The translations under genes and the position numbers were made by a program. Under the pieces are notes generated by a model, which was given only the letters and a program-made list of their open reading frames with translations, ran no database searches and was not told where the DNA came from. A stretch of 32,000 nucleotides of DNA from NCBI RefSeq assembly GCF_000829315.1, contig NZ_AP013028.1, forward strand, positions 510,001 to 542,000, read 5' to 3'. The stretch is from Wolbachia endosymbiont of Cimex lectularius (GTDB taxonomy: Bacteria; Pseudomonadota; Alphaproteobacteria; Rickettsiales; Anaplasmataceae). Shown piece after piece: positions 3,146 to 26,199 of this stretch (position 1 is the stretch's first letter; each line of letters opens with the position of its first letter).

Positions 3146-6100
3146 TTACGAGGCAAGTACTTTAATTCTTCTTATTATAAATATTAATTTACTTAAATCA
3201 AGCTTAGAAGCAACCATCTCATCTAAGAAACTATTATAACGTTCTATGCAATCTCTATCATTACAAGCCCAGGTTTGAACTTTATCTTCACGGTTACCGG
3301 TGGACTTTATAACTTTGACAGCTAGCTTATAATGATAATTGCTTAAATCATCCAATAAATCATTAATTAAGCTGCGGTCCCAATAAGAAGAATGACTTTT
3401 CATCTTGATAGCAATTGTTCTAATTAGATCGAATCTTAGTAGCGACTTTAACTCAAAGTATATTTTACCAGTGTCAAGAATAGGTAAGGATGTCTGCTCA
3501 GCAATGGATATAACGTCCAATGCATAGGCCAAAATACACAGGTCAGCAACCTTTTTTACTAGATCTTTATTTATATTAAGCTCCACTAAAGAAGCAGACC
3601 CATGGTGATAGACCTTCAATAGATGCTCATCTAAAACATCAGTTAAGTTCTGGCCTAAAGTCTCAATTGCATCCTTAAATTTTGTGACATCATCCAGCTC
3701 TATAGAGCCGAGTTTGCTGAGATTTTTTACTAACCAAAATGATACTCTGCCAATAAATTTCTGCACATTTCTCACTATTTGCAAGTATGAGTTAACATCA
3801 ATCTTTCCATCCAATTCATCAATTTTCTGCCACAGGTTATTTAAACTATATAGACGATTAACAACAATATACACATTAACTGCTTCATGCACTTTGATTC
3901 CAGTATTTTCAACTAGATTATTAATAAATATACATCCCATCCTATTCACTATATCGTTTGCAATGCAAGTGGAGATAATCTCTCTGCGAAGTTGGTGTTT
4001 TAATATGTAATCCTTGAACTCTGTTACCATTTTTTGTGGAAAGTAGTTTAGCAAGTAATCACGACACAAGGAATCTTTTTCAGGCAAGCTGGAAAGTATA
4101 ATTTCATTTTCTATTGCTGTTCTAGCGTAAGACATCAGGACAGAAAGCTGAGGAGAACTAAAGCCCTCCGCTCCAGTCAACATTCTCGCTATTTCCTCAT
4201 CAGCTGGAAGAAATTCCACACTTCGGTTTAGCAACCCAGATCTCTCCAAGCTGAGTAATAATCTGTGATGCTGCTCTAACCTTTCCTTAGCTTGCAAGCA
4301 CTCAAGGAGTAATGCTTTTGTTTCAATTCTGTTATGATCTTCAAGTACCTTAGATGCAACTTCGTCTACCATACTGGCCAGTATTTCGTTCCTTTTTTCT
4401 AAGGAAATGCCCCCTCCTTTCATAATCAAAACAAATGCAATTTTGATGTTAACTTCCAAATCAGAACATATTACTCCTGCCGAATTATCAACAAAATCTG
4501 CATTGATATATCCACCCTTCTCTGCATACTCTATTCTTCCAAGCTGCGTGCAACCGAGATTACCACCCTCTATGAACATAGAAGCTCTAATATCCTCACC
4601 ATTCACTCTTAACTCATCATTTGCCTTGTCACTGACCATATCATGGCTTTCACTTCTCGCTTTAACAAACGTGCCAATTCCTCCATTCCATATAAAATCC
4701 ACTCTTGCTTTTAACAGATATCGGATCAAGTCATTTGGAGATAATATATCCTCTGTTATGTCAAAGCATTTTTTTATTTCTTGAGAAATGTTTACTTGCT
4801 TGCTGCTGCGCTCAAATACCCCACCACCCTCAGAAATCAAATCTTTGCTATAATCCATCCAAGTTGAAAATGGCAACTCAAAGAGACGTTTACGCTCTGC
4901 AAAACTCTTTTCTGCATCAGGACTCGGGTCAACAAAAATATGCATATGGTTAAATGCGCCGATTAAACGCATATTTTTTGAAAGCAGCATGCCATTCCCA
5001 AACAGATCGCCAGCCATATCTCCAATTCCAATAACAGTTACATCTTGATAAATATCCCTATTCATTCTCCAAAAATGCCTTTGTGCTGCAATCCACGCGC
5101 CTCTTGCTGTAATACCCATCTTTTTGTGGTCGTAACCTGCCGATCCACCAGATGCAAATGCATCGCCAAGCCAAAAATTATACTCAGAGGCTATTTGGTT
5201 GGCATAATCAGAAAATGAAGCAGTGCCTTTATCTGCCGCAACTACTAAGTATGGATCATCTTCATCATACCTAATTACATTTTCTGGTGGAATTATTTTA
5301 CCATCAACTACATTATCAGTAATATCAAGCATTCCTCTGATAAAATTCTTATAGCACTCAACACCTTTCTCTCTTAAGATATTTTTATCTCTATAAACTT
5401 TCTTTATTATAAACCCACCCTTTGCACCAACAGGGACTATAACCGCGTTTTTCGTCATCTGAGCTTTCATGAGTCCCAAAACTTCAGTGCGAAAATCTTC
5501 CGTCCTATCTGACCACCTTAAACCACCACGCGCTAGCTTTCCTCCTCTTAGGTGTATTCCCTCAAAAAGGTTCGAATACACATACAACTCACGATATGGA
5601 CGCGGGTCAGGCAAGCCATTTATTTTACTTGAATCAAATTTTGTAGATAAATATGGTTTATCCTCTTGATAATAACTGGTCCTTAAAACGGCCATTATCA
5701 AGTTAAATATCGAACGTATAACGTAATCATGTGAAACATTGCTGATCTCTTTTAGAAGCTCCTCAATTTTCTCTCTGAAGATGTCTGTAGTTTCTGCTCT
5801 ATCAATATCTATACTAGGATCAAATCTTGCATGAAATAATTGTATCAGATACTTCACTATCTTTGGATACTCTGAAACTACTTTTTGAACGTATTCTGGG
5901 TTGTATTTAAATGACGTTTGCTTCAGGTAAGCACTTAGCGTCCTAATCAGAAGCACCTCTTTCCACTCCAGCCCAGCAATAATGATCAAACTGTTGAAAT
6001 AGTCATTTTTAATTTCTCCTCTAAACACTTTTGCAAGCGTTATCTCAAACTGCTCTTTCAGAGTAATGTTGTCTATTAATTCATCAACCCTCGACAACAC

Positions 6101-7855
6101 AAAATGGTGTATCCATATTCCACCGTTGATTTCTATGTAATAACCATTATGAGATAGGATCTTCGCCCCCAAATTCTTAGTAATTCTCAATATCTTTGAT
6201 AATTCAAGGCCGCCATTGCTTAGAGTATAAACCTTTAATTGATAATTGAGATTGTCACGAGTAAGTCTTAAATCGACCTCACTTACTTTCTTTTTCCTTA
6301 CTATCTCCAATTTCTTCATATCGTAATATACGTCGTTGGGTTCGAAACTCTCTTGATAGCTTATCGGGAATGCCTTGCAATAACGGATGAATACATCCTC
6401 AACAGTACCGAAGGTATTATATAGGTTATCTATAAAACGATCTTCCCACTTTTCTGTAATGTTTCTCAATTTGTTTTCAATACACAGAACTTCATCATCA
6501 AGAACACTAGCACCTTCAGCCTTTAGCACCACATGCAATTTCATCAAGTCATATTCGTTTATAATGTGATGGTTATAAATATCTGCACCTTTTGCATTTA
6601 TCTCATCCTTCAATATGTCACGTACCTTGAACATTAACCTGGCACTAGCATAACGCATCGGTATCAACACTATGCAACTAATAAAGTCCCCCACCTTTCT
6701 TAAAAACAATTTGACTCTTGGCCTAATTGCAAGAGACATGATCGAAGTACAAATTTTAAACAACTCATCTTCATTGGACTGGAATAATTCATCACAAGAG
6801 AATGCTTGCAAGATAGAAACTAAAGCCTTATTGTTGTGGCCACCCGGTATGAACCCTGCCCTTTTCTCTATTATTTCAATTTTATTCTTTATTACCGGGA
6901 TAGTTCGAATATCTTGAACTTCAGCTATAGAAGTAAACAATCCAAAAAAACGCCGTTCCTTTATCACGTTACCCTGATCATTAAATTCTCTCACTCCTAT
7001 ATAATTCATGTACGTACGCCGATGAACTATTGAAATCAGATCTGACCTCAATATGTATAAACAATCAGTGTCCACACAAGGAACCAATACATTTTGATAC
7101 TCTTCACTTGCTCTCATTAAACCAAGATTTTCCTTACCACTTGGAACGAACTTCCCATCTTCATCAGGAATGCATTCTTGATAACCTAAAAATACAAAGT
7201 TGTTATTCTTCAACCAAGCTAGAAAATCTTTTTCCTGGATCCCAGTATCAAGTACTGGGATGACAGAAAGATTTGCCTCATCAAGCTTCTGCAGCATCAG
7301 GCGCCAATCTTTCACAACGCAATTAACTGCTTTCAGTGTTCTGTGTAGAGACTCTTTTAGTGTATCAACAAAACTGTCACTTATGCATTTAATAACCACA
7401 TATATCACCGACTCCTTGATACCATTATCATCTTCTAAATTGCAAATCTCATTAATAAGGCCACTTTTTCTTTGGATGTTAATTATGCTGTTGCTGTAAT
7501 AGCATATAGTTAAATTATGCGACTTAATGGTGGCAATAATAGAGTCAACCAGAAAAGGTATGTCGTCATTTGCTACTTTAATTATAGTAAAATTGCCTTC
7601 TATCCCTGGTACATCATTTACATTACTTACCATTAACTTACTTTCTTCTTTCTCTTTTTTAAGGATGAAGTTGTATGCGTCTTCTGCAATGTACAGAAGG
7701 AATTTATCATTAATCTTTAGGTCGCTATTGTAGACAAAATTATAAAAGTACTTAATAAACTCTTTAATTTTCTCCTTTTCTTTTTGATTTTCTTGATTAA
7801 TCAACTTAAATAAAGACTCAGTGTCAACATTATGCTCTACACACATTTTTTGCAA
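3146..7855 (-). CDS. gdhB: Large NAD-specific glutamate dehydrogenase (about 180-kDa class)
   Basis: A 1,569-aa uninterrupted ORF. The central catalytic region (GGLRWSDR...VPVGAKGGF...VVAADKGTA...GGSAGYDHKKMGITARGAW) is typical of the large bacterial NAD-GDH family. Confidence 0.9.
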   Translation of the reverse strand: MQKMCVEHNVDTESLFKLINQENQKEKEKIKEFIKYFYNFVYNSDLKINDKFLLYIAEDAYNFILKKEKEESKLMVSNVNDVPGIEGNFTIIKVANDDIPFLVDSIIATIKSHNLTICYYSNSIINIQRKSGLINEICNLEDDNGIKESVIYVVIKCISDSFVDTLKESLHRTLKAVNCVVKDWRLMLQKLDEANLSVIPVLDTGIQEKDFLAWLKNNNFVFLGYQECIPDEDGKFVPSGKENLGLMRASEEYQNVLVPCVDTDCLYILRSDLISIVHRRTYMNYIGVREFNDQGNVIKERRFFGLFTSIAEVQDIRTIPVIKNKIEIIEKRAGFIPGGHNNKALVSILQAFSCDELFQSNEDELFKICTSIMSLAIRPRVKLFLRKVGDFISCIVLIPMRYASARLMFKVRDILKDEINAKGADIYNHHIINEYDLMKLHVVLKAEGASVLDDEVLCIENKLRNITEKWEDRFIDNLYNTFGTVEDVFIRYCKAFPISYQESFEPNDVYYDMKKLEIVRKKKVSEVDLRLTRDNLNYQLKVYTLSNGGLELSKILRITKNLGAKILSHNGYYIEINGGIWIHHFVLSRVDELIDNITLKEQFEITLAKVFRGEIKNDYFNSLIIIAGLEWKEVLLIRTLSAYLKQTSFKYNPEYVQKVVSEYPKIVKYLIQLFHARFDPSIDIDRAETTDIFREKIEELLKEISNVSHDYVIRSIFNLIMAVLRTSYYQEDKPYLSTKFDSSKINGLPDPRPYRELYVYSNLFEGIHLRGGKLARGGLRWSDRTEDFRTEVLGLMKAQMTKNAVIVPVGAKGGFIIKKVYRDKNILREKGVECYKNFIRGMLDITDNVVDGKIIPPENVIRYDEDDPYLVVAADKGTASFSDYANQIASEYNFWLGDAFASGGSAGYDHKKMGITARGAWIAAQRHFWRMNRDIYQDVTVIGIGDMAGDLFGNGMLLSKNMRLIGAFNHMHIFVDPSPDAEKSFAERKRLFELPFSTWMDYSKDLISEGGGVFERSSKQVNISQEIKKCFDITEDILSPNDLIRYLLKARVDFIWNGGIGTFVKARSESHDMVSDKANDELRVNGEDIRASMFIEGGNLGCTQLGRIEYAEKGGYINADFVDNSAGVICSDLEVNIKIAFVLIMKGGGISLEKRNEILASMVDEVASKVLEDHNRIETKALLLECLQAKERLEQHHRLLLSLERSGLLNRSVEFLPADEEIARMLTGAEGFSSPQLSVLMSYARTAIENEIILSSLPEKDSLCRDYLLNYFPQKMVTEFKDYILKHQLRREIISTCIANDIVNRMGCIFINNLVENTGIKVHEAVNVYIVVNRLYSLNNLWQKIDELDGKIDVNSYLQIVRNVQKFIGRVSFWLVKNLSKLGSIELDDVTKFKDAIETLGQNLTDVLDEHLLKVYHHGSASLVELNINKDLVKKVADLCILAYALDVISIAEQTSLPILDTGKIYFELKSLLRFDLIRTIAIKMKSHSSYWDRSLINDLLDDLSNYHYKLAVKVIKSTGNREDKVQTWACNDRDCIERYNSFLDEMVASKLDLSKLIFIIRRIKVLAS
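7237..7266. repeat. Short palindromic element embedded in frame in the gdh CDS
   Basis: atcccagta-tcaag-tactgggat forms a perfect 9-bp stem with a 5-nt loop (7239-7261). It is translated as VIPVLDTGIQ in gdh. It is closely similar to the intergenic gatcccagtatcgagcattggaatgac at 10014-10040. Confidence 0.8.
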
Positions 7856-8223: not shown

Positions 8224-9396
8224 ATGCCAGATCTAAAAACAATGATGTTGAATTTTGGACCTCAGCACCCAGCGGCACATGGGGTGTTGCGTCTTGTATT
8301 GGAAATGGATGGTGAAGTGATCGAAAGAGCAGATCCCCATATTGGGCTTTTGCACCGTGGCACTGAAAAATTAATAGAGCACAAAACGTACCTCCAAGCT
8401 TTGCCGTATTTTGATCGTCTTGACTACGTATCACCAATGTCACAAGAGCACGCATATTCACTGTGTGTAGAGAAATTGTTGCAATGCGAAGTGCCGGTCA
8501 GAGCAAAATATTTGCGTGTTTTGTTTTGTGAGCTGACCAGAATACTAAATCACTTGCTCAATATCTCTTCTCAAGCACTGGATGTTGGAGCGATGACTCC
8601 TCTTCTATGGCTCTTTGAAGAAAGAGAAAAAATATTGGCATTCTACGAAAGAGCTTCGGGTGCAAGGTTTCATGCAGCTTATATTAGGCCAGGTGGAGTG
8701 GCAGCAGATATTCCAGAAGGTTTAATTGAGGATATCGCAAAGTTCATAGAGCAATTTCCGCAGTATATAGACGATGTCGACGAACTTTTGACGGAAAATA
8801 GGATATGGAAACAACGTACTGTAGGAATCAGTGAAATATCGATTAAACAGGCGCTTGACTGGGGTTTTAGCGGACCAATGCTGCGTGCTGCTGGGCTTGC
8901 TTGGGATTTGCGAAAAAGCCAGCCATATGAGATATACGACCAACTGGATTTTGATATACCAATCGGCCAAAATGGCGACTGTTATGACCGTTATTTAGTC
9001 AGGATGGCGGAGATTAGGCAATCTATTAGTTTGGTAAAGCAGTGCATAGAAAAAATGCCCGAAGGACCAGTAAAAACTGAAGATAGAAAGATTTCTCCAC
9101 CGCCAAGAGCAGAGATGAAAACGTCCATGGAGGCTCTTATTCACCATTTTAAGCTTTATTCGGAAGGGTATAGTGTGCCAGAAGGTGAGGCTTATGCGGC
9201 TGTTGAAGCACCAAAAGGTGAGTTTGGGGTATATATAGTTTCAGATGGCACTAATATGCCCTATAGGTGCAGAATAAGAGCACCCGGCTTTGCGCATTTG
9301 CAAGCCTTGGACTTCATGTCAAAAGGGCACATGCTTGCTGACATTGCAGCAATTATTGGTTCGCTCGATATAGTTTTTGGTGAGATCGATAGGTAA
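8224..9396 (+). CDS. nuoD: NADH-quinone oxidoreductase subunit D
   Basis: The 390-aa ORF starts [18 protein letters not shown] and ends ...[13 protein letters not shown], which are hallmark NuoD (49-kDa subunit) termini. Confidence 0.95.
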
Positions 9397-9468
9397 GCTA
9401 TAGCTCGTTTGGTAGCAACCAGAAGTTAATAGATCTATTGCATAACAAATCGGCTTTTGGCATATGCG

Positions 9469-9726
9469 AAAAAACTACTTGACAACCTTCACCATTACCC
9501 TTATAATAATACTGAAGCTATTTGTTTAACTTCCCAATCTGTGCACTGCATGTCTTTTTAAAACTTCGGGTTTTTACCCATACAAGCTGAAACGCGCTTA
9601 TAAGTCGTTTAAGACATCACCCAACGCCGGATTTTAAAATAGAGAGCGGAATAACTAGTTACCTCGGGTTTTTATTGTCTTTTTTCCCTGCCTGGTAAAT
9701 TTCTTAAATATTATAGCTTAGACTAG
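9469..9726 (+). repeat. Promoter-bearing repeat, copy 1 (candidate small RNA unit)
   Basis: The reverse complement of 24485-24760 aligns to this region. The 127-nt core 9542-9668 differs from the other copy at only 2 positions. It has no ORF of 60 aa or more, and a 7-bp stem atgtctt/aagacat (9550-9556 / 9611-9617) closes a 68-nt domain. Confidence 0.75.
9479..9507 (+). promoter_or_regulatory. Consensus sigma70 promoter inside repeat copy 1
   Basis: TTGACA (9479-9484), a 17-nt spacer accttcaccattaccct, then TATAAT (9502-9507). Both hexamers match the consensus exactly. Confidence 0.65.
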
Positions 9727-9846
9727 TTGCGTTTAAAAGCAGCTAAATTGCAGCGTTTAAGGCATAAAAGCGCCAATACTGAAAGTAAATACCGACCAGG
9801 GCTCCTTTTGCTTTTTTTCTCGCTTGGTAAGTTTCTTAAATATTTA
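9675..9846 (+). repeat. Two ~39-nt direct repeats (9675-9713 and 9808-9846)
   Basis: ttgtcttttttccctgcctggtaaatttcttaaatatta versus ttgctttttttctcgcttggtaagtttcttaaatattta. The start-to-start offset is 133 bp. A shortened relative (tttctttgcctgtttttct) sits at the end of repeat copy 2. Confidence 0.6.
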
Positions 9847-9860
9847 TTGCTAAAGTAGTA

Positions 9861-9935
9861 TCCTGGGTCCCAGTGTTGGCTACTTGGATGACACCCATAA
9901 CCTTGTCATTTCAGCGCGTGACGCTGGAATCTAGG
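9861..9935. repeat. Two adjacent degenerate palindromic elements (cccagtg... type and ttcagcgcgtgacgctggaa type)
   Basis: tcctgggtcccagtgttggctacttggatgac is followed by gtcatttcagcgcgtgacgctggaatc (stem cagcg/cgctg). Both have the gtcat/atgac-flanked architecture seen at 7237-7266 and 10014-10040. Confidence 0.6.
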
Positions 9936-10013
9936 AATTTTATTAAGTTGGTGAATATAAAAGTAGCTGTTTTATGTTAAAATACGACGTTTTTGATGAT
10001 TATGGAAAGGCTA

Positions 10014-10040
10014 GATCCCAGTATCGAGCATTGGAATGAC
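10014..10040. repeat. Degenerate palindromic element of the same family as the one in gdh
   Basis: gatcccagtatcgagcattggaatgac versus gatcccagtatcaagtactgggatgac in gdh (7238-7264). Confidence 0.65.
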
Positions 10041-10153
10041 AAGAAAAGGAGGCACTTACATGACACCACTTTTGCTTCAATATTTGCAAATTAACCACGT
10101 CCCTAAATAGATATCAAAGTTTTAGAATAAATTGTACCTACTCACAACCTCAA

Positions 10154-10247: not shown

Positions 10248-10991
10248 CTATGGAAAAAATTTGTCTGCGTGAGAATTTTTCATAGCATTCAACGTATCAT
10301 AATCTGTAAAATCTAATTTTATTGGTGTGATAGTGATAAATCCTTCTTTGATTTTACCTACACTACCACTACCTGAGTGTTCTCGAGACCAGTTTAAACT
10401 TAAAGAGCCATCTGAATTTTCAGTAAAGGTTAAATCTCCATCAATGTTATATTCACCTTGCTCAACAAACTCTATTCCTTTTACTTTTTCCACAGCAGGA
10501 AGATTTACACTCATCGCTATATTTTTAGGCCAGCCAATTTCAACTAGTTTAGCAATAACTTTTGGTGCAAAAACCTTTGTATTGTGCCAGTTTATCCCGT
10601 TATGATATACTTGGCTTAGCGCAATAGAAGGTATAGATCTTGCAGCGCCTTCCATAACAGCACCAATTGTTCCTGAATAACAAACATCGTCTCCAACGTT
10701 TGATCCAACATTTACTCCAGATAATATTAAATCTGGCTTTTTATTCATGATCTTATTCAGCGCAATAATAACACAATCTGCAGGAGTACCAGACACACTG
10801 AATTCCTTTTTACCATGTTGGTTTACTCTAATAGATTGACTTATTGGGTAGTCAAGAGATCTTGCTGCTCCACTTCTGTCAGTATCTGGTGCCACTACCC
10901 ATATTTCTGATGCAAAATTTTGTGCAACCTCTTTGAGTAATTTTATTCCTTCACTTTCAAAACCATCATCATTTGTTATTAATATTATCAT
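10248..10991 (-). CDS. surE: 5'/3'-nucleotidase SurE
   Basis: MIILITNDDGF... matches the SurE N-terminal NDDG motif, and the length is SurE-like. The longest ORF starts 7 codons earlier at 11012; the ATG at 10991 is preferred by comparison with family N-termini. Confidence 0.85.
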   Translation of the reverse strand: MIILITNDDGFESEGIKLLKEVAQNFASEIWVVAPDTDRSGAARSLDYPISQSIRVNQHGKKEFSVSGTPADCVIIALNKIMNKKPDLILSGVNVGSNVGDDVCYSGTIGAVMEGAARSIPSIALSQVYHNGINWHNTKVFAPKVIAKLVEIGWPKNIAMSVNLPAVEKVKGIEFVEQGEYNIDGDLTFTENSDGSLSLNWSREHSGSGSVGKIKEGFITITPIKLDFTDYDTLNAMKNSHADKFFP

Positions 10992-11206
10992 ATGAAATTT
11001 TATATAGCTCAAAAGTTATGATAAATAATTCTGGTCACTGTTTGCAAATAAATATATCGCTCTTACCTACTTTCAATCATCTGCAGCTTTTATTGATTTT
11101 CTAGTACTTTACCTCTACCATGCATTAAATTCATGAAAATTCATAGCTTGACGGAAAAATCAATCTGACCTCATATTTGTGCACTAGTTCCAGTGTTGGG
11201 AGATAA

Positions 11207-16245: not shown

Positions 16246-16735
16246 CTATGTTTTCCCAAGAGAATCCACATATTCTTCTGATTTCTTACCAAAGTGTCCA
16301 TAACAGGTTGTACGTTTATATATAGGACGATTAAGCGATAAATGTTTTATGATACCTTTAGTTGATAAATCTATGTTATCTTCGATAAGCTTTTTAATCC
16401 TCTTCTCATCTACTGTATTTGTACCAAATGTATCAATGTAGAATGAGGTAGGTTTTGACACACCAATTGCATAAGAAAGCTGCACAAGGCAGCGCTCGGC
16501 TAAACCTGCAAAGACAATATTTTTAGCAAGATATCTTGCCATATAAGCTGCAGATCTATCAACCTTTGTTGCGTTTTTTCCAGAAAACGCTCCCCCACCA
16601 TGCGGAATATATCCTCCATAAGTATCAACCATGATTTTTCGTCCAGTTAATCCACAATCACCAACTGGTCCACCAACAACAAACCTACCAGTTGGATTGA
16701 CCAAGAGATTTTCCTCAGAACACATCCACCCCTTA
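16246..16735 (-). pseudogene. metK: S-adenosylmethionine synthetase, 3' fragment only (about the C-terminal 40 percent), truncated at the IS
   Basis: [29 protein letters not shown]...[23 protein letters not shown]...SYAIGVSKP matches the C-terminal domain of MetK. The frame runs open into the IS end, and the roughly 225 N-terminal residues are absent on the other side of the IS. Confidence 0.88.
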
Positions 16736-17595
16736 GAACCTGTTTAAAATCTTGGAAATGTGAGGTAAAGTAAGCATAGATTAATAATGAGGTGTCTATG
16801 CAGAAAAGTTATCCAAGTAATATAAGTCAAGAGCAGTTTGAAAAAATCAGGCCAATTTTGGAGAGTAGCAAGCAGAAAACAAAACCAAGAAAACTTGATT
16901 TGTATGACGTATTTTGTGGGGTGTTGTACGTCTTAAAAAGTGGTTGTCAGTGGAGGATGTTACCAAAGGGTTTTCCAAGATGGGAAAGCGTATATTACTA
17001 TTTTCGAGTGTGGAGTAAAAAGAATGGAGAAGAGCCAAGCTTGTTGGAATTAGTCTTAAAAAAAATTAGTTGGAGAGGTCCGTATCAGCAATGGTCGGAA
17101 AGAGAAAACTAGCTTTTGTATAATTGATTCTCAAAGCGTTAAAAACGCAGATACTGCTGAAAAAAAAGGCTATGATGCAGGTAAAAAGATTTCAGGGATA
17201 AAGCGCCATATTGCAGTTGATACACAAGGTTTGCCACATGCAATTTATGTAACAACGGCAGAAGCAACTGACCGTAGCAGTGCTGTGAAAATGGTCGAAA
17301 ATGCTAAAGCAAACCTCTCTGAAGTTAAAAACATACTGGTTGATGCTGGCTACACAGGAGAAAATTTTGCAACACAAATAAAAGCTATCATTGGTGCGAC
17401 TGTTGAAGTAATAAAGCGAAGTGAGTTACACACTTTCGTCGTATTGCCAAAAAGATGGGTTGTTGAACGCTCTTTTGCCTGGTTAGAAAAGTGCAGGCGA
17501 TTGTGGAAAAATTGCGAGCGGAAGCTCAACACTAGCTTACAGATGATAGTCCTCTCCTTCATTTCTCTCCTGTTACGAAGATTTTAAACAGGTTC
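16736..17595 (+). mobile_element. IS5-family insertion sequence, copy 2 (identical to 224-1083)
   Basis: Same 18-bp IRs and same ORFs, offset by exactly 16,512 bp. TTA sits on both sides (16733-16735, 17596-17598). Confidence 0.9.
16792..17587 (+). CDS. IS5-family DDE transposase in two frames (ORFA 16792-17112; ORFB frame to 17587)
   Basis: Protein sequences are identical to those of copy 1, with the same A8 run at 17058-17065. Confidence 0.85.
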
Positions 17596-17874
17596 TTACA
17601 CTAACTCATCACTTTTATAGAACATCTCATTAAAATCATCTAAAGTTCCAAAATCCTGGTCATTGATAAACAAATGATCATCAATAACATATGCTTTATC
17701 AAGAGTAAATGGTTCGTAGTAATGGTTGTGAGCCGGACTAACAATTTCGTTATATAAAACCATAACTTGCTCATAGCTATATTCTTTGCTCACATGGTAT
17801 TTGTCACGTACGGTATCATAAAAATTCTTCATATCGTCATACGTAACTTGTAGTTCCACCTTATACTTTCCCAT
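17596..17874 (-). CDS. Hypothetical acidic 92-aa ORF, probably the C-terminal part of the upstream gene (joined through a C9 tract)
   Basis: I recognise no family. The ATG lies 8 codons downstream of the C9 tract in the frame that a C10 tract would produce. The stop codon TAA coincides with the IS target duplication. Confidence 0.5.
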   Translation of the reverse strand: MGKYKVELQVTYDDMKNFYDTVRDKYHVSKEYSYEQVMVLYNEIVSPAHNHYYEPFTLDKAYVIDDHLFINDQDFGTLDDFNEMFYKSDELV

Positions 17875-24108: not shown

Positions 24109-24468
24109 ATGTCATTCATCTTTTTTCTTTTTTTGATATTCATAGTAATTACTTTTGTCTTGCCCAGCGTTGTTGTATTTTTTCTCTTCTTAACAAAAAG
24201 AAATAACATAGGTTTCATGATGAATTCTATATTGAGTAGATTTTTGAATGAATTTAATGGCAATAGAAGTTATACTAAAAATGAAGCCGGTGATAATATG
24301 TCCACAGATGAGGCACTAAAAATATTGGGGCTAAATCCTGAAGCAAGCAAAAATGAAATCAATAAAGCATATCAAAATTTAATGAAGTTAGTTCACCCAG
24401 ATAAAGGAGGCTCAGAATATTTTGCACAAAAGTTAAATGCAGCACGTGATAGATTGCTGAGGAGATAA
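24109..24468 (+). CDS. Small membrane-anchored J-domain protein (DnaJ-domain only)
   Basis: The N-terminus is hydrophobic (FIFFLFLIFIVITFVLPSVVVFFLFL). The C-terminal J domain has EALKILGL...AYQNLMKLVHPDKGG (HPD motif). Confidence 0.8.
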   Translation: MSFIFFLFLIFIVITFVLPSVVVFFLFLTKRNNIGFMMNSILSRFLNEFNGNRSYTKNEAGDNMSTDEALKILGLNPEASKNEINKAYQNLMKLVHPDKGGSEYFAQKLNAARDRLLRR

Positions 24469-24484
24469 TAAATCTCTTGCATAA

Positions 24485-24760
24485 CCTAAGCTAAGCAGAA
24501 AAACAGGCAAAGAAACCCCGAGGTAGCTAGTTATTCCACTCTCTATTTTAAAATCCGGCGTTGGGTGATGTCTTAAACGACTTATAAGCGCGTTTCAGCT
24601 TGTATGGGTAAAAACCCGAAGTTTTAAAAAGACATGCAGTGCACATAGTACGCCAAATACAAGTTTTCTTGTCATTTTAACCTGTACAGATTGGGAAGTT
24701 AAACAAATAGCTTTAGTATCATTATAAAGGTAACGGCGAAGGTTGTCAAGTAGTTTTTTT
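24485..24760 (-). repeat. Promoter-bearing repeat, copy 2 (inverted relative to copy 1, with a 43-nt insertion)
   Basis: The reverse complement matches 9469-9726. The insertion at 24644-24686 is absent from copy 1, and the 3' part is shorter than in copy 1. Confidence 0.75.
24721..24749 (-). promoter_or_regulatory. Consensus sigma70 promoter inside repeat copy 2
   Basis: On the minus strand: TTGACA (24749-24744), a 17-nt spacer accttcgccgttacctt, then TATAAT (24726-24721). The spacer differs from copy 1 at 3 positions, while both hexamers are unchanged. Confidence 0.65.
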
Positions 24761-24810
24761 GTTTCTATTGGGTAGCTTTTTTCTACTGTCGTCTTGTGTC
24801 TTGTCAAAAG

Positions 24811-24948: not shown

Positions 24949-26199
24949 TTAACCCACTACAACTTTTATATGGCGTTTCTTTCCTGCGGATAGCTTCATG
25001 AATGGCTGGCCTTTAAAGCTCTCGAAATTTATTATATAATTAACATCATTTATAGTATTATCATTAACTTTACATCCATTGCCCTGTATTAAACGCTTTG
25101 CAGCACCTTTTGAAGGTTCAAGACTGGTGTTGTGTAGCAGATCTACTAAGGGTATGCCATTTGCAACTTGTTCTTTTGTTATGATATAATCAGGAAGTAA
25201 TGAACTATCTTCATTCTCAAAAGCTAAAACTGCAGCAGATCGTGCAATTTCTGCTTCTTTTTCACCATGACATATTTTTGTTACTTCTGTTGCCAAAACT
25301 TTTTTCGCTTCATTTATTTCTTGATCCTTTAGAGACTCTAGTTTTTTAATCTCATCAATCGGCAAATCAGTAAAAAGCCTCAAAAAATGCCCAACATCTT
25401 GATCATCAACATTGCGAAAATATTGCCAGTAGTCATAGGGCTTTAGCATACTGCCATCGAGCCATATAGCTCCATTTTCAGTTTTACCCATCTTTTTTCC
25501 TTGTGCATTTAATAAAAGAGGAGCGGTTAGGCCAAACAACTCAGGTAGATTCAACCTTTTGCCAAGTTCAATTCCGTTTACTATATTTCCCCATTGGTCT
25601 GATCCTCCAATCTGCAGACAACAGCCATACTTTTTATTCAATTCAACGAAATCATAAGCTTGCAACAACATGTAATTAAACTCAAGAAAGCTTAGGTTTT
25701 GTTCTCTATCGAGCCTAATTTTTACACTGTCGAGACTTAGCATACGGTTCACAGAAAAATGCACTCCTACGTTGCGTAAAAAATCTATATATTTTATACT
25801 ATCTAGCCAATCTGCGTTATTTACTACGATTGCACCAGTCTTTCCATCGTTGAAAGATATCATTTTCTCGAGTGTTTTTTTTATGCCGGATATGTTTTGG
25901 TTGATATCTTTTATAGGCAAGACACTCCTTGCTTTGTCTTTGCCGGATGGATCGCCAATCTTGGTTGTACCGCCTCCAAGTAAGACTATTGGCTTGTAAT
26001 CAAATTTTTGTAGGTGACGGAGCATCATAATCTGAATTAGATGACCAGCATGAAGGCTTGGTGCTGTGCAATCAAACCCGATATATGCAATTATATGATT
26101 ATTTTGCGATAATAGTCGATCTAACCCCTCAGCGTCTGTACACTGATATAGATACCCTCTTTCTTGGATAAAATTTAAAAATTCGGACTTATGTTTCAT
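24949..26199 (-). CDS. tyrS: Tyrosine--tRNA ligase
   Basis: Contains a HIGH-type motif (PSLHAGHL), a KMSKS-type motif (KKMGKT) and a C-terminal S4-like domain. The ORF is 416 aa. Confidence 0.93.
   Translation of the reverse strand: MKHKSEFLNFIQERGYLYQCTDAEGLDRLLSQNNHIIAYIGFDCTAPSLHAGHLIQIMMLRHLQKFDYKPIVLLGGGTTKIGDPSGKDKARSVLPIKDINQNISGIKKTLEKMISFNDGKTGAIVVNNADWLDSIKYIDFLRNVGVHFSVNRMLSLDSVKIRLDREQNLSFLEFNYMLLQAYDFVELNKKYGCCLQIGGSDQWGNIVNGIELGKRLNLPELFGLTAPLLLNAQGKKMGKTENGAIWLDGSMLKPYDYWQYFRNVDDQDVGHFLRLFTDLPIDEIKKLESLKDQEINEAKKVLATEVTKICHGEKEAEIARSAAVLAFENEDSSLLPDYIITKEQVANGIPLVDLLHNTSLEPSKGAAKRLIQGNGCKVNDNTINDVNYIINFESFKGQPFMKLSAGKKRHIKVVVG

Follow-up and report, generated by a model that had tools for sequence, protein, structure and literature searches.

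Two inverted promoter-bearing repeats of the Wolbachia endosymbiont of Cimex lectularius belong to a dispersed intergenic repeat family

What is transcribed from a perfect promoter that faces a gap between genes? This question is raised twice by a 32,000-nucleotide (nt) stretch of the genome of the Wolbachia endosymbiont of Cimex lectularius (wCle; NZ_AP013028.1, positions 510,001-542,000, here called the window), in which two inverted copies of a repeat each carry a consensus sigma-70-type promoter. An earlier note, made from the letters of this DNA alone, proposed that the two copies form a candidate family of structured small RNAs (sRNAs). Our analysis favors a different answer, to which we would give a probability of about 0.65: both loci are copies of a Wolbachia-wide, promoter-bearing transcription unit that is homologous to the "A-supergroup repeat motif" (ARM) and has a mainly local effect, and they are not genes for a structured, trans-acting sRNA.

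The inverted repetition itself is genuine. The arms at 9469-9545 and 24683-24759 are complementary at 92%, and a second pair of arms at 9540-9685 and 24500-24645 is 95% complementary. Pairwise alignment of copy 1 (plus strand) with copy 2 (minus strand) reproduced the three substitutions counted earlier in the promoter spacer and the two in the shared core (gagCgga/gagTgga and ctagTt/ctagCt), and the core motifs named in the earlier note are present as described (atgtctt at 9550-9556, aagacat at 9611-9617, cttataag and aaaacttcgggtttt). The architecture of the two copies was called identical, but copy 2 has, ahead of the core and after the start-site region, 43 nt that are missing from copy 1. 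The homologous unit is also longer than was claimed. A profile hidden Markov model of the family described below matches the 32-kb window twice, at copy 1 and at copy 2. Copy 1 (9464-9855, plus strand) keeps both internal modules and has lost approximately 55-63 nt of the 5' transcribed region; nhmmer aligns it in two segments (model positions 3-82 at 9466-9545, E-value: 2e-20, and 138-459 at 9539-9854, E-value: 5.4e-85), the internal deletion corresponding to 55 model positions (83-137). Copy 2 (24471-24764, minus strand) keeps most of the 5' region, with a 19-nt deletion, and is without module B, its match (model positions 2-295, E-value: 2.6e-83) ending at model position 295. Based on the listing of open reading frames (ORFs), both copies are intergenic.

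Each copy carries TTGACA-N17-TATAAT with 12 of 12 positions matched (9479-9507 on the plus strand in copy 1 and 24721-24749 on the minus strand in copy 2). As the earlier note had it, the promoters are perfect. No other such site exists in the window. The number expected from dinucleotide-preserving shuffles is 0.04, and none of 100 shuffles reached two perfect sites. In copy 1 the -35 hexamer is immediately preceded by the A-tract AAAAAACTAC (9469-9478, plus strand), the central A's of which are conserved at 0.86-0.99 in the family and which we take to resemble a putative proximal UP-element subsite. By homology to the mapped starts of paralogs, transcription of copy 1 is predicted to begin at the G of GAAGCT at 9514 (plus strand), 7 nt past the -10 hexamer, and that of copy 2 at an A at 24714 (minus strand).

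A scan of one genome per species, using the 19-base core anchor AAGCTGAA-N0-1-CGCGCTTATAA, identified at least 120 stretches, nearly all of them in Wolbachia or in Rickettsiales-labelled metagenome-assembled genomes (MAGs), with a handful of chance matches in unrelated taxa. The flanks of the Rickettsiales-labelled MAG copies agree with the window at 92-98% where they were compared (loci L031 and L058). Among the matches listed, there are at least 19 copies in the complete genome of the Cantharis cryptica symbiont, at least about 24 in one MAG and at least eight in wMoz, and a profile search recovers further copies without the exact anchor. The family is a dispersed intergenic repeat of approximately 450 base pairs (bp), with about 10-25 copies per Wolbachia genome. 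The earlier note had described two members and had looked to a homology search for the copy number; the search returned many copies, and the family of two did not survive it.

All-against-all BLAST places the shared unit at about -190 to +280 around the anchor (approximately 450-470 bp), with similarity among copies ending about 300 nt after the anchor. In the column-wise profile, the unit has a sharp 5' edge just before the -35 hexamer and a 3' edge near ...TTTATAGCTAAAG. Its interior contains tandem homologous modules at a spacing of 132-156 nt: module A, with the family consensus AAGCTGAAACGCGCTTATAAGTCGTTTAAGACA ... ACGCCAAT ... GGGGTTTCTTTTGCCTTTTTTTCTGCTTAGTAAATTTCTTAA, and module B, a diverged tandem copy of it. 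In copy 1, module A (9584-9716, plus strand), which was delimited by the anchor match and the family alignment, consists of the conserved core AAGCTGAAACGCGCTTATAAGTCGTTTAAGACA... followed by a U-rich tail at about 9666-9712, while module B (9717-9855, plus strand) contains …GCAGCGTTTAAGGCAT…CGCCAATACTG… and a tail at 9799-9844. Direct repeats D1, D2 and D4, spaced 132-148 nt apart, link module A to module B in this copy.

One subfamily has been catalogued before. Schneider, Klasson, Lind & Miller (2014, BMC Microbiol 14:121; PMC4029913) described ARM as an intergenic repeat 440 bp long, of which wMel has 24 near-identical dispersed copies and other supergroup A strains approximately 20, serving as an ultrasensitive target for the polymerase chain reaction (PCR). 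They associated it with the VNTR-105/141 tandem repeats of Riegler et al. (2012; PMC3287509), and by megablast they found it absent from supergroups B, C and D (PMC4029913). The ARM primers match three of our loci exactly (L054, L056 and L103), 315 bp apart and in each case behind TTGACA-N17-TATCAT or TACCAT, and because of these exact matches ARM in the strict sense can be regarded as one subfamily of the family. The window copies match a profile that includes these three loci with E-values of 5.4e-85 and 2.6e-83. In wCle, the primer sites have diverged (8-9 of 21 positions mismatched at ARM-F and five mismatches at the other primer). Family homologs are found beyond supergroup A, in supergroup F (wCle and wMoz) and, in degenerate form, in supergroup D; the family is therefore wider than the name ARM, and the window copies are best called ARM-like. 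ARM and the family of the window have in common a length of about 440-450 bp, an intergenic and dispersed distribution, approximately 20 copies per genome and a tandem two-module interior; the wCle copies differ from ARM in their internal deletions and diverged primer sites. ARM was described as a DNA marker: the word promoter does not occur in the ARM and VNTR papers (PMC4029913, PMC3287509), and the latter makes no mention of transcription (PMC3287509). A general literature search for a named promoter-bearing repeat of Wolbachia returned nothing useful. What is already known, then, is the ARM repeat family; what is added here are its supergroup F members and a promoter and transcript that we did not find described for ARM.

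Two observations from phage DNA touch on the same repeat. In searches of phage and plasmid collections, edge fragments were found in two WO prophage records only and none in plasmids. The WOVitA1 prophage (HQ906662.1, 13-133) starts with a 120-nt fragment of the repeat's 5' region, beside a site-specific recombinase gene, and the WO record MN180249 has another fragment under an annotated RNase HII gene.

The promoter is the best-conserved part of the unit. Conservation was scored by position as the fraction of copies with the consensus base among 87 aligned copies, the window copies being excluded. The -35 hexamer scores 0.956 and the -10 hexamer (TATCAT, TATAAT or TATTAT) 0.872, compared with 0.71 for the 17-nt spacer, 0.64 for the discriminator, 0.757 for the transcribed part and 0.38 for the upstream flank. 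A conserved A-tract adjoins the -35 hexamer on its upstream side throughout the family, and in a separate scan 98 of 108 copies had a promoter score of at least 10/12 at 17-nt spacing. Such position-specific conservation of the hexamers indicates that promoter function is under selection, a view that the earlier note had taken on the strength of two copies in preferring selection to a chance AT-rich match.

Transcription has been recorded from paralogs in supergroup A. The wMel clones IGR-1047 and IGR-1021, obtained by 5' rapid amplification of cDNA ends (5'RACE) by Woolfit et al. (2015, PLoS One; PMC4349823), are paralogs of the window repeat. They begin GAAGCTATTG... and GAAGGCATTC..., respectively, with a 5' end homologous to window position 9514; the sequence that follows the adaptor is GAAGCTATTGTATTTGC... 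or GAAGGCATTCAGTTATC... and runs on into ...AAGCTGAA(A)CGCGCTTATAA.... The Cappable-seq data for wMelPop-CLA also place starts at the base homologous to 9514. Specifically, oTSS_-_131390 and iTSSps_+_1067756 (approximately 40-45 counts per million) lie behind TTGACA-N17-TATCAT, and their downstream sequences start (T)GAAGCTATTTATTT... or (T)GAAGCTATTTATTTATC.... In paralogs, transcripts thus start where the earlier note had predicted. The IGR-1047 RNA must be at least about 310 nt long and must run past the first U-rich tail, because the reverse-transcription primer sits in module B. Woolfit et al. found IGR-1021 to be co-transcribed with the downstream coding sequence and hence set it aside as an sRNA, while IGR-1047 was set aside for want of specific primers; a further region, IG-446, had 392 reads per kilobase per million mapped reads compared with 18-34 for its flanking genes (PMC4349823).

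The candidate sRNA regions of that study were each handled separately and were not named as one family (PMC4349823), and the Cappable-seq study likewise contains no statement that these loci form a family. The 5'RACE primers used for two highly expressed wMel regions of PMC4349823, IGR-446 (hemC/sucB) and IGR-1049 (WD1276/htpG), resemble the ...CACTATGTGCAC..ATGTCTT segment of the family in sense orientation, a likeness that may explain why 5'RACE failed at these two loci. The 254-nt "highly conserved" nuoD/WD0562 intergenic region of wMel has the same gene context as copy 1, and the named wMel sRNAs ncrwmel01 and ncrwmel02 are unrelated in sequence to the repeat (PMC4349823); ncrwmel02 is thereby ruled out as the identity of copy 2. 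A text search of the Cappable-seq supplements with the window's own sequences gave no match, starts being found for other subfamilies only.

Is the transcript a structured RNA? At the gathering score, the Rfam covariance search had no match on either copy; the earlier note had been unable to assign the repeat to tmRNA, 6S, RNase P or SRP RNA. A permissive search (E-values up to 10) returned only noise on the repeat, such as mir-191 at an E-value of 1.4, and a scan for tRNA and tmRNA found none. The predicted RNAs of the window copies fold no better than shuffled sequences (minimum free energy z-scores: +0.87 and +0.11), and the full-length ARM RNA folds marginally better (z-score: -1.73). With default settings, RNAalifold found one 4-bp invariant hairpin only in 72 homologs. 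With RIBOSUM scoring, it proposed a 5' hairpin, a long-range UUGGCGU/ACGCCAA helix, a GCAC/GUGC hairpin and the GUCUU/AAGAC stem of the earlier note, at an energy that is similar on both strands (-53.7 forward and -51.4 for the reverse complement), and the 5' strand of the long-range helix is deleted in copy 1. The compensatory substitutions anticipated in the predicted stems were not detected at significant levels: pairs changed on both sides number 8 in the 72 homologs compared with 7.5 in shuffles, and 237 of 500 shuffles score as high. No terminator-like site was found in or after either window copy in a search for intrinsic terminators, and a search of approximately 1 Mb of sampled Wolbachia DNA for antisense targets returned element fragments only.

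A compact structured small RNA is not supported for the window repeat. The 68-nt domain proposed in the earlier note is at odds with the z-scores, with a consensus of four invariant pairs and with an RNA of at least about 310 nt in wMel. Of the proposed small RNA family, the family, the promoter and, in paralogs, the transcription were upheld, whereas the structured sRNA was not in view of the folding, covariation and Rfam results. The note had named, as an outcome that would count against its proposal, copies that are pieces of a larger known element and show no structure-preserving covariation. This is largely what was found, the larger element being the catalogued ARM repeat (PMC4029913).

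The genes around the two copies are readily recognized. The nuoD product (8224-9396, plus strand; Pfam Complex1_49kDa) is 100% identical to NuoD of the Wolbachia of Cimex lectularius, which marks the window as belonging to supergroup F wCle or to a strain nearly identical with it. Copy 1 lies downstream of nuoD, and its predicted transcript faces the 3' end of the convergent surE gene (10248-11012, minus strand; Pfam SurE, E-value: 5.5e-54). Copy 2 is preceded by tyrS (24949-26199, minus strand; Pfam tRNA-synt_1b, E-value: 3.5e-74, and SYY_C-terminal), and its predicted transcript is directed at the 3' end of a J-domain gene in convergent orientation (24109-24468, plus strand; Pfam DnaJ, E-value: 5.6e-9, and Pam16, E-value: 3e-8), the stop codon of which is 3 nt from the end of the copy. 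The convergent arrangement described in the earlier note is thus correct for both copies. Across the family, 43 copies have a downstream gene on their own strand and 42 have a convergent one, from which it follows that the unit is not the dedicated promoter of a class of genes. A dedicated promoter or 5' untranslated region of the downstream gene was rejected as an explanation on the same count.

Comparison of loci places the copies at synteny breakpoints. Among the testable pairs of loci from the sampled genomes with a common flank, 16 differ on the other side and one shares both. This sole pair consists of copy 2 and L050 of wMoz, the ortholog of copy 2 between the same genes, which keeps module B. 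In a close relative, the copy after nuoD (L031) has a left flank and promoter orthologous to those of the window at 95%, an interior of another subfamily and a different downstream gene. At L125 (OX366317.1) and L126 (CP050521.1) (supergroup B and supergroup D genomes), nuoD is followed within 11-19 nt by a convergent recJ, with no element between them; at the supergroup D locus, a degenerate repeat copy lies upstream of nuoD instead. The nuoD-element-surE order of the window is retained in Wolbachia sp. C61_2 (L129). Between wCle and C61_2 the whole intergenic region, which is mostly the element and the neighbouring palindromic repeats, is 0.874 identical, and four-fold degenerate sites are 0.875 (nuoD) and 0.95 (surE) identical; given this similarity, the region evolves at a roughly neutral rate. 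The promoter of the C61_2 copy has decayed (TTGACG/TTCAAT), and this copy keeps 63 nt that are missing from copy 1, so that the wCle deletion is recent. Copy 2 and its wMoz ortholog are 0.67 identical in the promoter, 0.84 in the 5' region and 0.93 in the core. The supergroup D copy is degenerate throughout, and promoter decay is seen in C61_2, wMoz and a supergroup D genome.

None of the usual marks of transposition were found. Terminal inverted repeats are absent from the full ARM copy and from copy 1, no consistent flanking duplication is present in 46 full copies, and beside approximately 120 copies among the matches listed there is no linked transposase or reverse transcriptase gene and no common neighbour gene on either side. 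Classification of the repeat as a miniature inverted-repeat transposable element or the end of an insertion sequence was rejected on these grounds. As a separate observation, the draft contigs L002 and L003 (CACPSL010000033.1 and CACPSO010000037.1) end 211 bp past nuoD, inside the repeat; the repeat breaks short-read assemblies.

The reading that we prefer may be set out as follows. Each unit would be self-contained, its 5' edge being formed by an A-tract and a near-consensus sigma-70 promoter, with transcription starting 7 nt past the -10 hexamer. Its RNA would be non-coding and weakly structured, comprising a 5' region and two tandem homologous modules that each close in a U-rich tract, and transcription would often read beyond the end of the repeat. 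In wCle the copies would be transcribed from their perfect promoters, the RNA of copy 1 running toward surE and that of copy 2 passing with almost no spacer into the J-domain gene, probably as antisense read-through. The family may persist, and the genome be reshuffled, through homologous recombination between copies and slippage between modules; to one or other of these we would assign the loss of module B, which the wMoz ortholog keeps, from copy 2. Single copies would meanwhile drift, lose pieces and lose their promoters. The effect on the cell would be mainly local, each unit acting as a portable promoter with sense or antisense read-through according to its chance orientation.

Several points weigh against this reading. 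Expression of the wCle copies is predicted from supergroup A paralogs, and antisense overlap of their RNAs with the two convergent genes is putative. That the hexamers have been kept, position by position, in subfamilies that have diverged implies selection for transcription and is not accounted for by drift and recombination alone. In the UUGGCGU/ACGCCAA helix, G-U cells outnumber A-C cells 48:12, the only hint of structure that we obtained. Approximately 75 nt of the core are about 99% identical between copy 2 and its wMoz ortholog, compared with 0.77 and 0.92 at four-fold sites of the flanking genes, which hints at constraint or gene conversion.

One alternative is that the copies encode sibling trans-acting non-coding RNAs, in which the 5' region and the core of approximately 33 nt (AAGCUGAAACGCGCUUAUAAGUCGUUUAAGACA) pair with targets or bind a protein, the many copies being maintained because RNA dose or variants matter to Wolbachia or its host. 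In its favor, the hexamers are the most conserved positions of the unit, paralog starts have been mapped (one with a log2 fold-change of 2.4 in the Cappable-seq table), members of the family are present in supergroups A, D and F, Woolfit et al. (PMC4349823) placed the wMel region that follows nuoD in the most conserved class in comparison with wPip, and both the near-identical core and the excess of G-U cells could be counted on the same side. We nevertheless consider such RNAs unlikely, because they have no Rfam family, no thermodynamic signal and no significant covariation, their alignment folds about equally well on either strand, and no complementary targets were found in the sampled DNA. 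Furthermore, orthologs diverge at close to the synonymous rate, with loss of their promoters; both window copies have tolerated large deletions of their interior, and in the reduced supergroup D genome the copy has degenerated. A broader and rather more doubtful version holds that ARM-like units amount to a set of 10-25 strongly promoted non-coding RNA genes throughout Wolbachia, with selection acting on the transcript, whether as a trans-acting or sponge regulator, possibly one reaching the host, or as an RNA needed in trans for recombination or mobility of the element; a selected transcript would explain why the hexamers are the best-conserved part across subfamilies older than the supergroup splits.

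A need for RNA in mobility would explain why promoters are retained in proliferating lineages, if the repeat were a non-autonomous mobile element whose own transcript served as a guide- or bridge-like RNA, or as a template, for a reverse transcriptase or recombinase whose gene lies elsewhere. In favor of this, the repeat exists in many dispersed copies with sharply defined boundaries, its promoter is conserved while single copies decay, several copies are framed by half-palindromes as though they had inserted into a palindromic repeat, and sites are filled in some supergroups and empty in others. Such an element is nonetheless improbable given the absence of terminal inverted repeats, target duplications and adjoining transposase or reverse transcriptase genes noted above, as well as of any Rfam match to group II introns or other mobile-element RNAs; moreover, a promoter upstream of the start would not be carried by an RNA copy, and the sharing of one flank only fits recombination equally well. 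Strong promoters and an occurrence as several intergenic loci of 400-500 bp each are typical of type I toxin-antitoxin systems, and a short ORF recurs over the most conserved block, encoding a peptide of 27-37 amino acids (M..YKLKRAYKSFKTV). This ORF is intact in 33 of 86 copies and thus absent from most, its start codons and frames differ among subfamilies, copy 1 has lost it, and a 4-nt indel shifts its frame between the orthologs of wCle and wMoz. As read by eye, the peptide has no clear hydrophobic character and the ORF has no Shine-Dalgarno sequence ahead of it, and a 72-amino-acid ORF over copy 2 has no Pfam match; the small-protein or toxin idea was ruled out by the frame disruption and we regard it as highly improbable. 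We give as little credence to the last alternative, that the promoters are chance matches in the AT-rich DNA of a dead, untranscribed duplicated segment. The genome is AT-rich, and weak promoter-like sites number 5 (2.8 expected) and 3 (3.7 expected) in two regions, but the perfect sites occur only in the repeat and far exceed expectation, conservation of the hexamers in 87 copies contrasts with a variable spacer, and the mapping of paralog starts to the homologous base by two methods contradicts this explanation for the family.

Comparison with better-known systems helps to place an ARM-like unit of this kind. Correia repeat-enclosed elements of Neisseria, ERIC, BOX and RUP are short, non-coding, multi-copy intergenic repeats that can supply promoters and change the transcription of adjacent genes in either orientation; the Correia elements are approximately 100-155 bp long, with terminal inverted repeats and TA target duplications. 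In contrast, the ARM-like unit is approximately 450 bp long, has neither terminal inverted repeats nor duplications, and is itself transcribed from a dedicated promoter located at its 5' edge. Sibling sRNAs such as Qrr1-5, LhrC1-5 and AbcR1/2 are under about 200 nt in length, with conserved terminator hairpins and seed regions, and occur in 2-7 copies. Like these, the ARM-like units are several paralogous non-coding transcription units per genome with promoters of their own; unlike them, they number 10-25, give an RNA of at least about 310 nt, and have no canonical terminator and no supported structure. WsnRNA-46 (Rfam RF02625) is comparable in being a Wolbachia non-coding RNA from a repeated intergenic sequence. 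The ARM-like repeat reveals no new RNA class or mechanism.

Its identification does join three literatures that are unconnected in the papers searched, namely those on the ARM PCR marker, the candidate sRNAs of wMel and the orphan Cappable-seq starts. Were every ARM-like unit to act as a strong and portable promoter, a regulator-poor genome would contain approximately 20 extra sources of transcription, with sense or antisense read-through of downstream genes, and the units would also mark sites of genome rearrangement. The family bears on the interpretation of Wolbachia transcriptomes, in which multi-mapping reads from such units are usually discarded, on the claimed A-supergroup specificity of the ARM marker, and on screens for sRNAs in Wolbachia.

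Immediately beyond copy 1, and outside the unit, lie WPE-like palindromic repeats (9863-10058, no strand assigned), which abut its 3' end and belong to direct-repeat family D2. Short palindromes of the form CTGGATCCCAGT...GGGATGACA, a kind abundant in Wolbachia, occur at 7235-7265, 9863-9893 and 10011-10041. Rfam WsnRNA46 matches 9890-10058 on both strands (39.3 and 31.5 bits) below its gathering score of 65.3; it was rejected as the identity of the repeat because the match is sub-threshold and falls on the neighbouring palindromic repeat. The junction between unit and palindrome (...CTAAAG|TAGTATCCTGGAT.CCAG), seen at window 9850-9875, recurs in at least 8 of 46 full copies from different genomes, including L006, L041, L063, L074, L104 and L123. 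In several copies the remaining half of the palindrome is found next to the 5' end, as though the unit lay within it.

Elsewhere in the window, an IS5-family insertion sequence is present twice (220-1084 and 16732-17596), the two having 300 nt in common at 100% identity and inverted ends of approximately 45 nt, with split transposase ORFs at 280-600 (DUF4096) and 719-1075 (DDE_Tnp_1); these elements are unrelated in sequence to the ARM-like repeat. Upstream of nuoD and divergent from it is an ORF of 1569 amino acids (3146-7855, minus strand), which in an identical public locus is a large NAD-specific glutamate dehydrogenase (Bac_GDH and GDH_* Pfam families).

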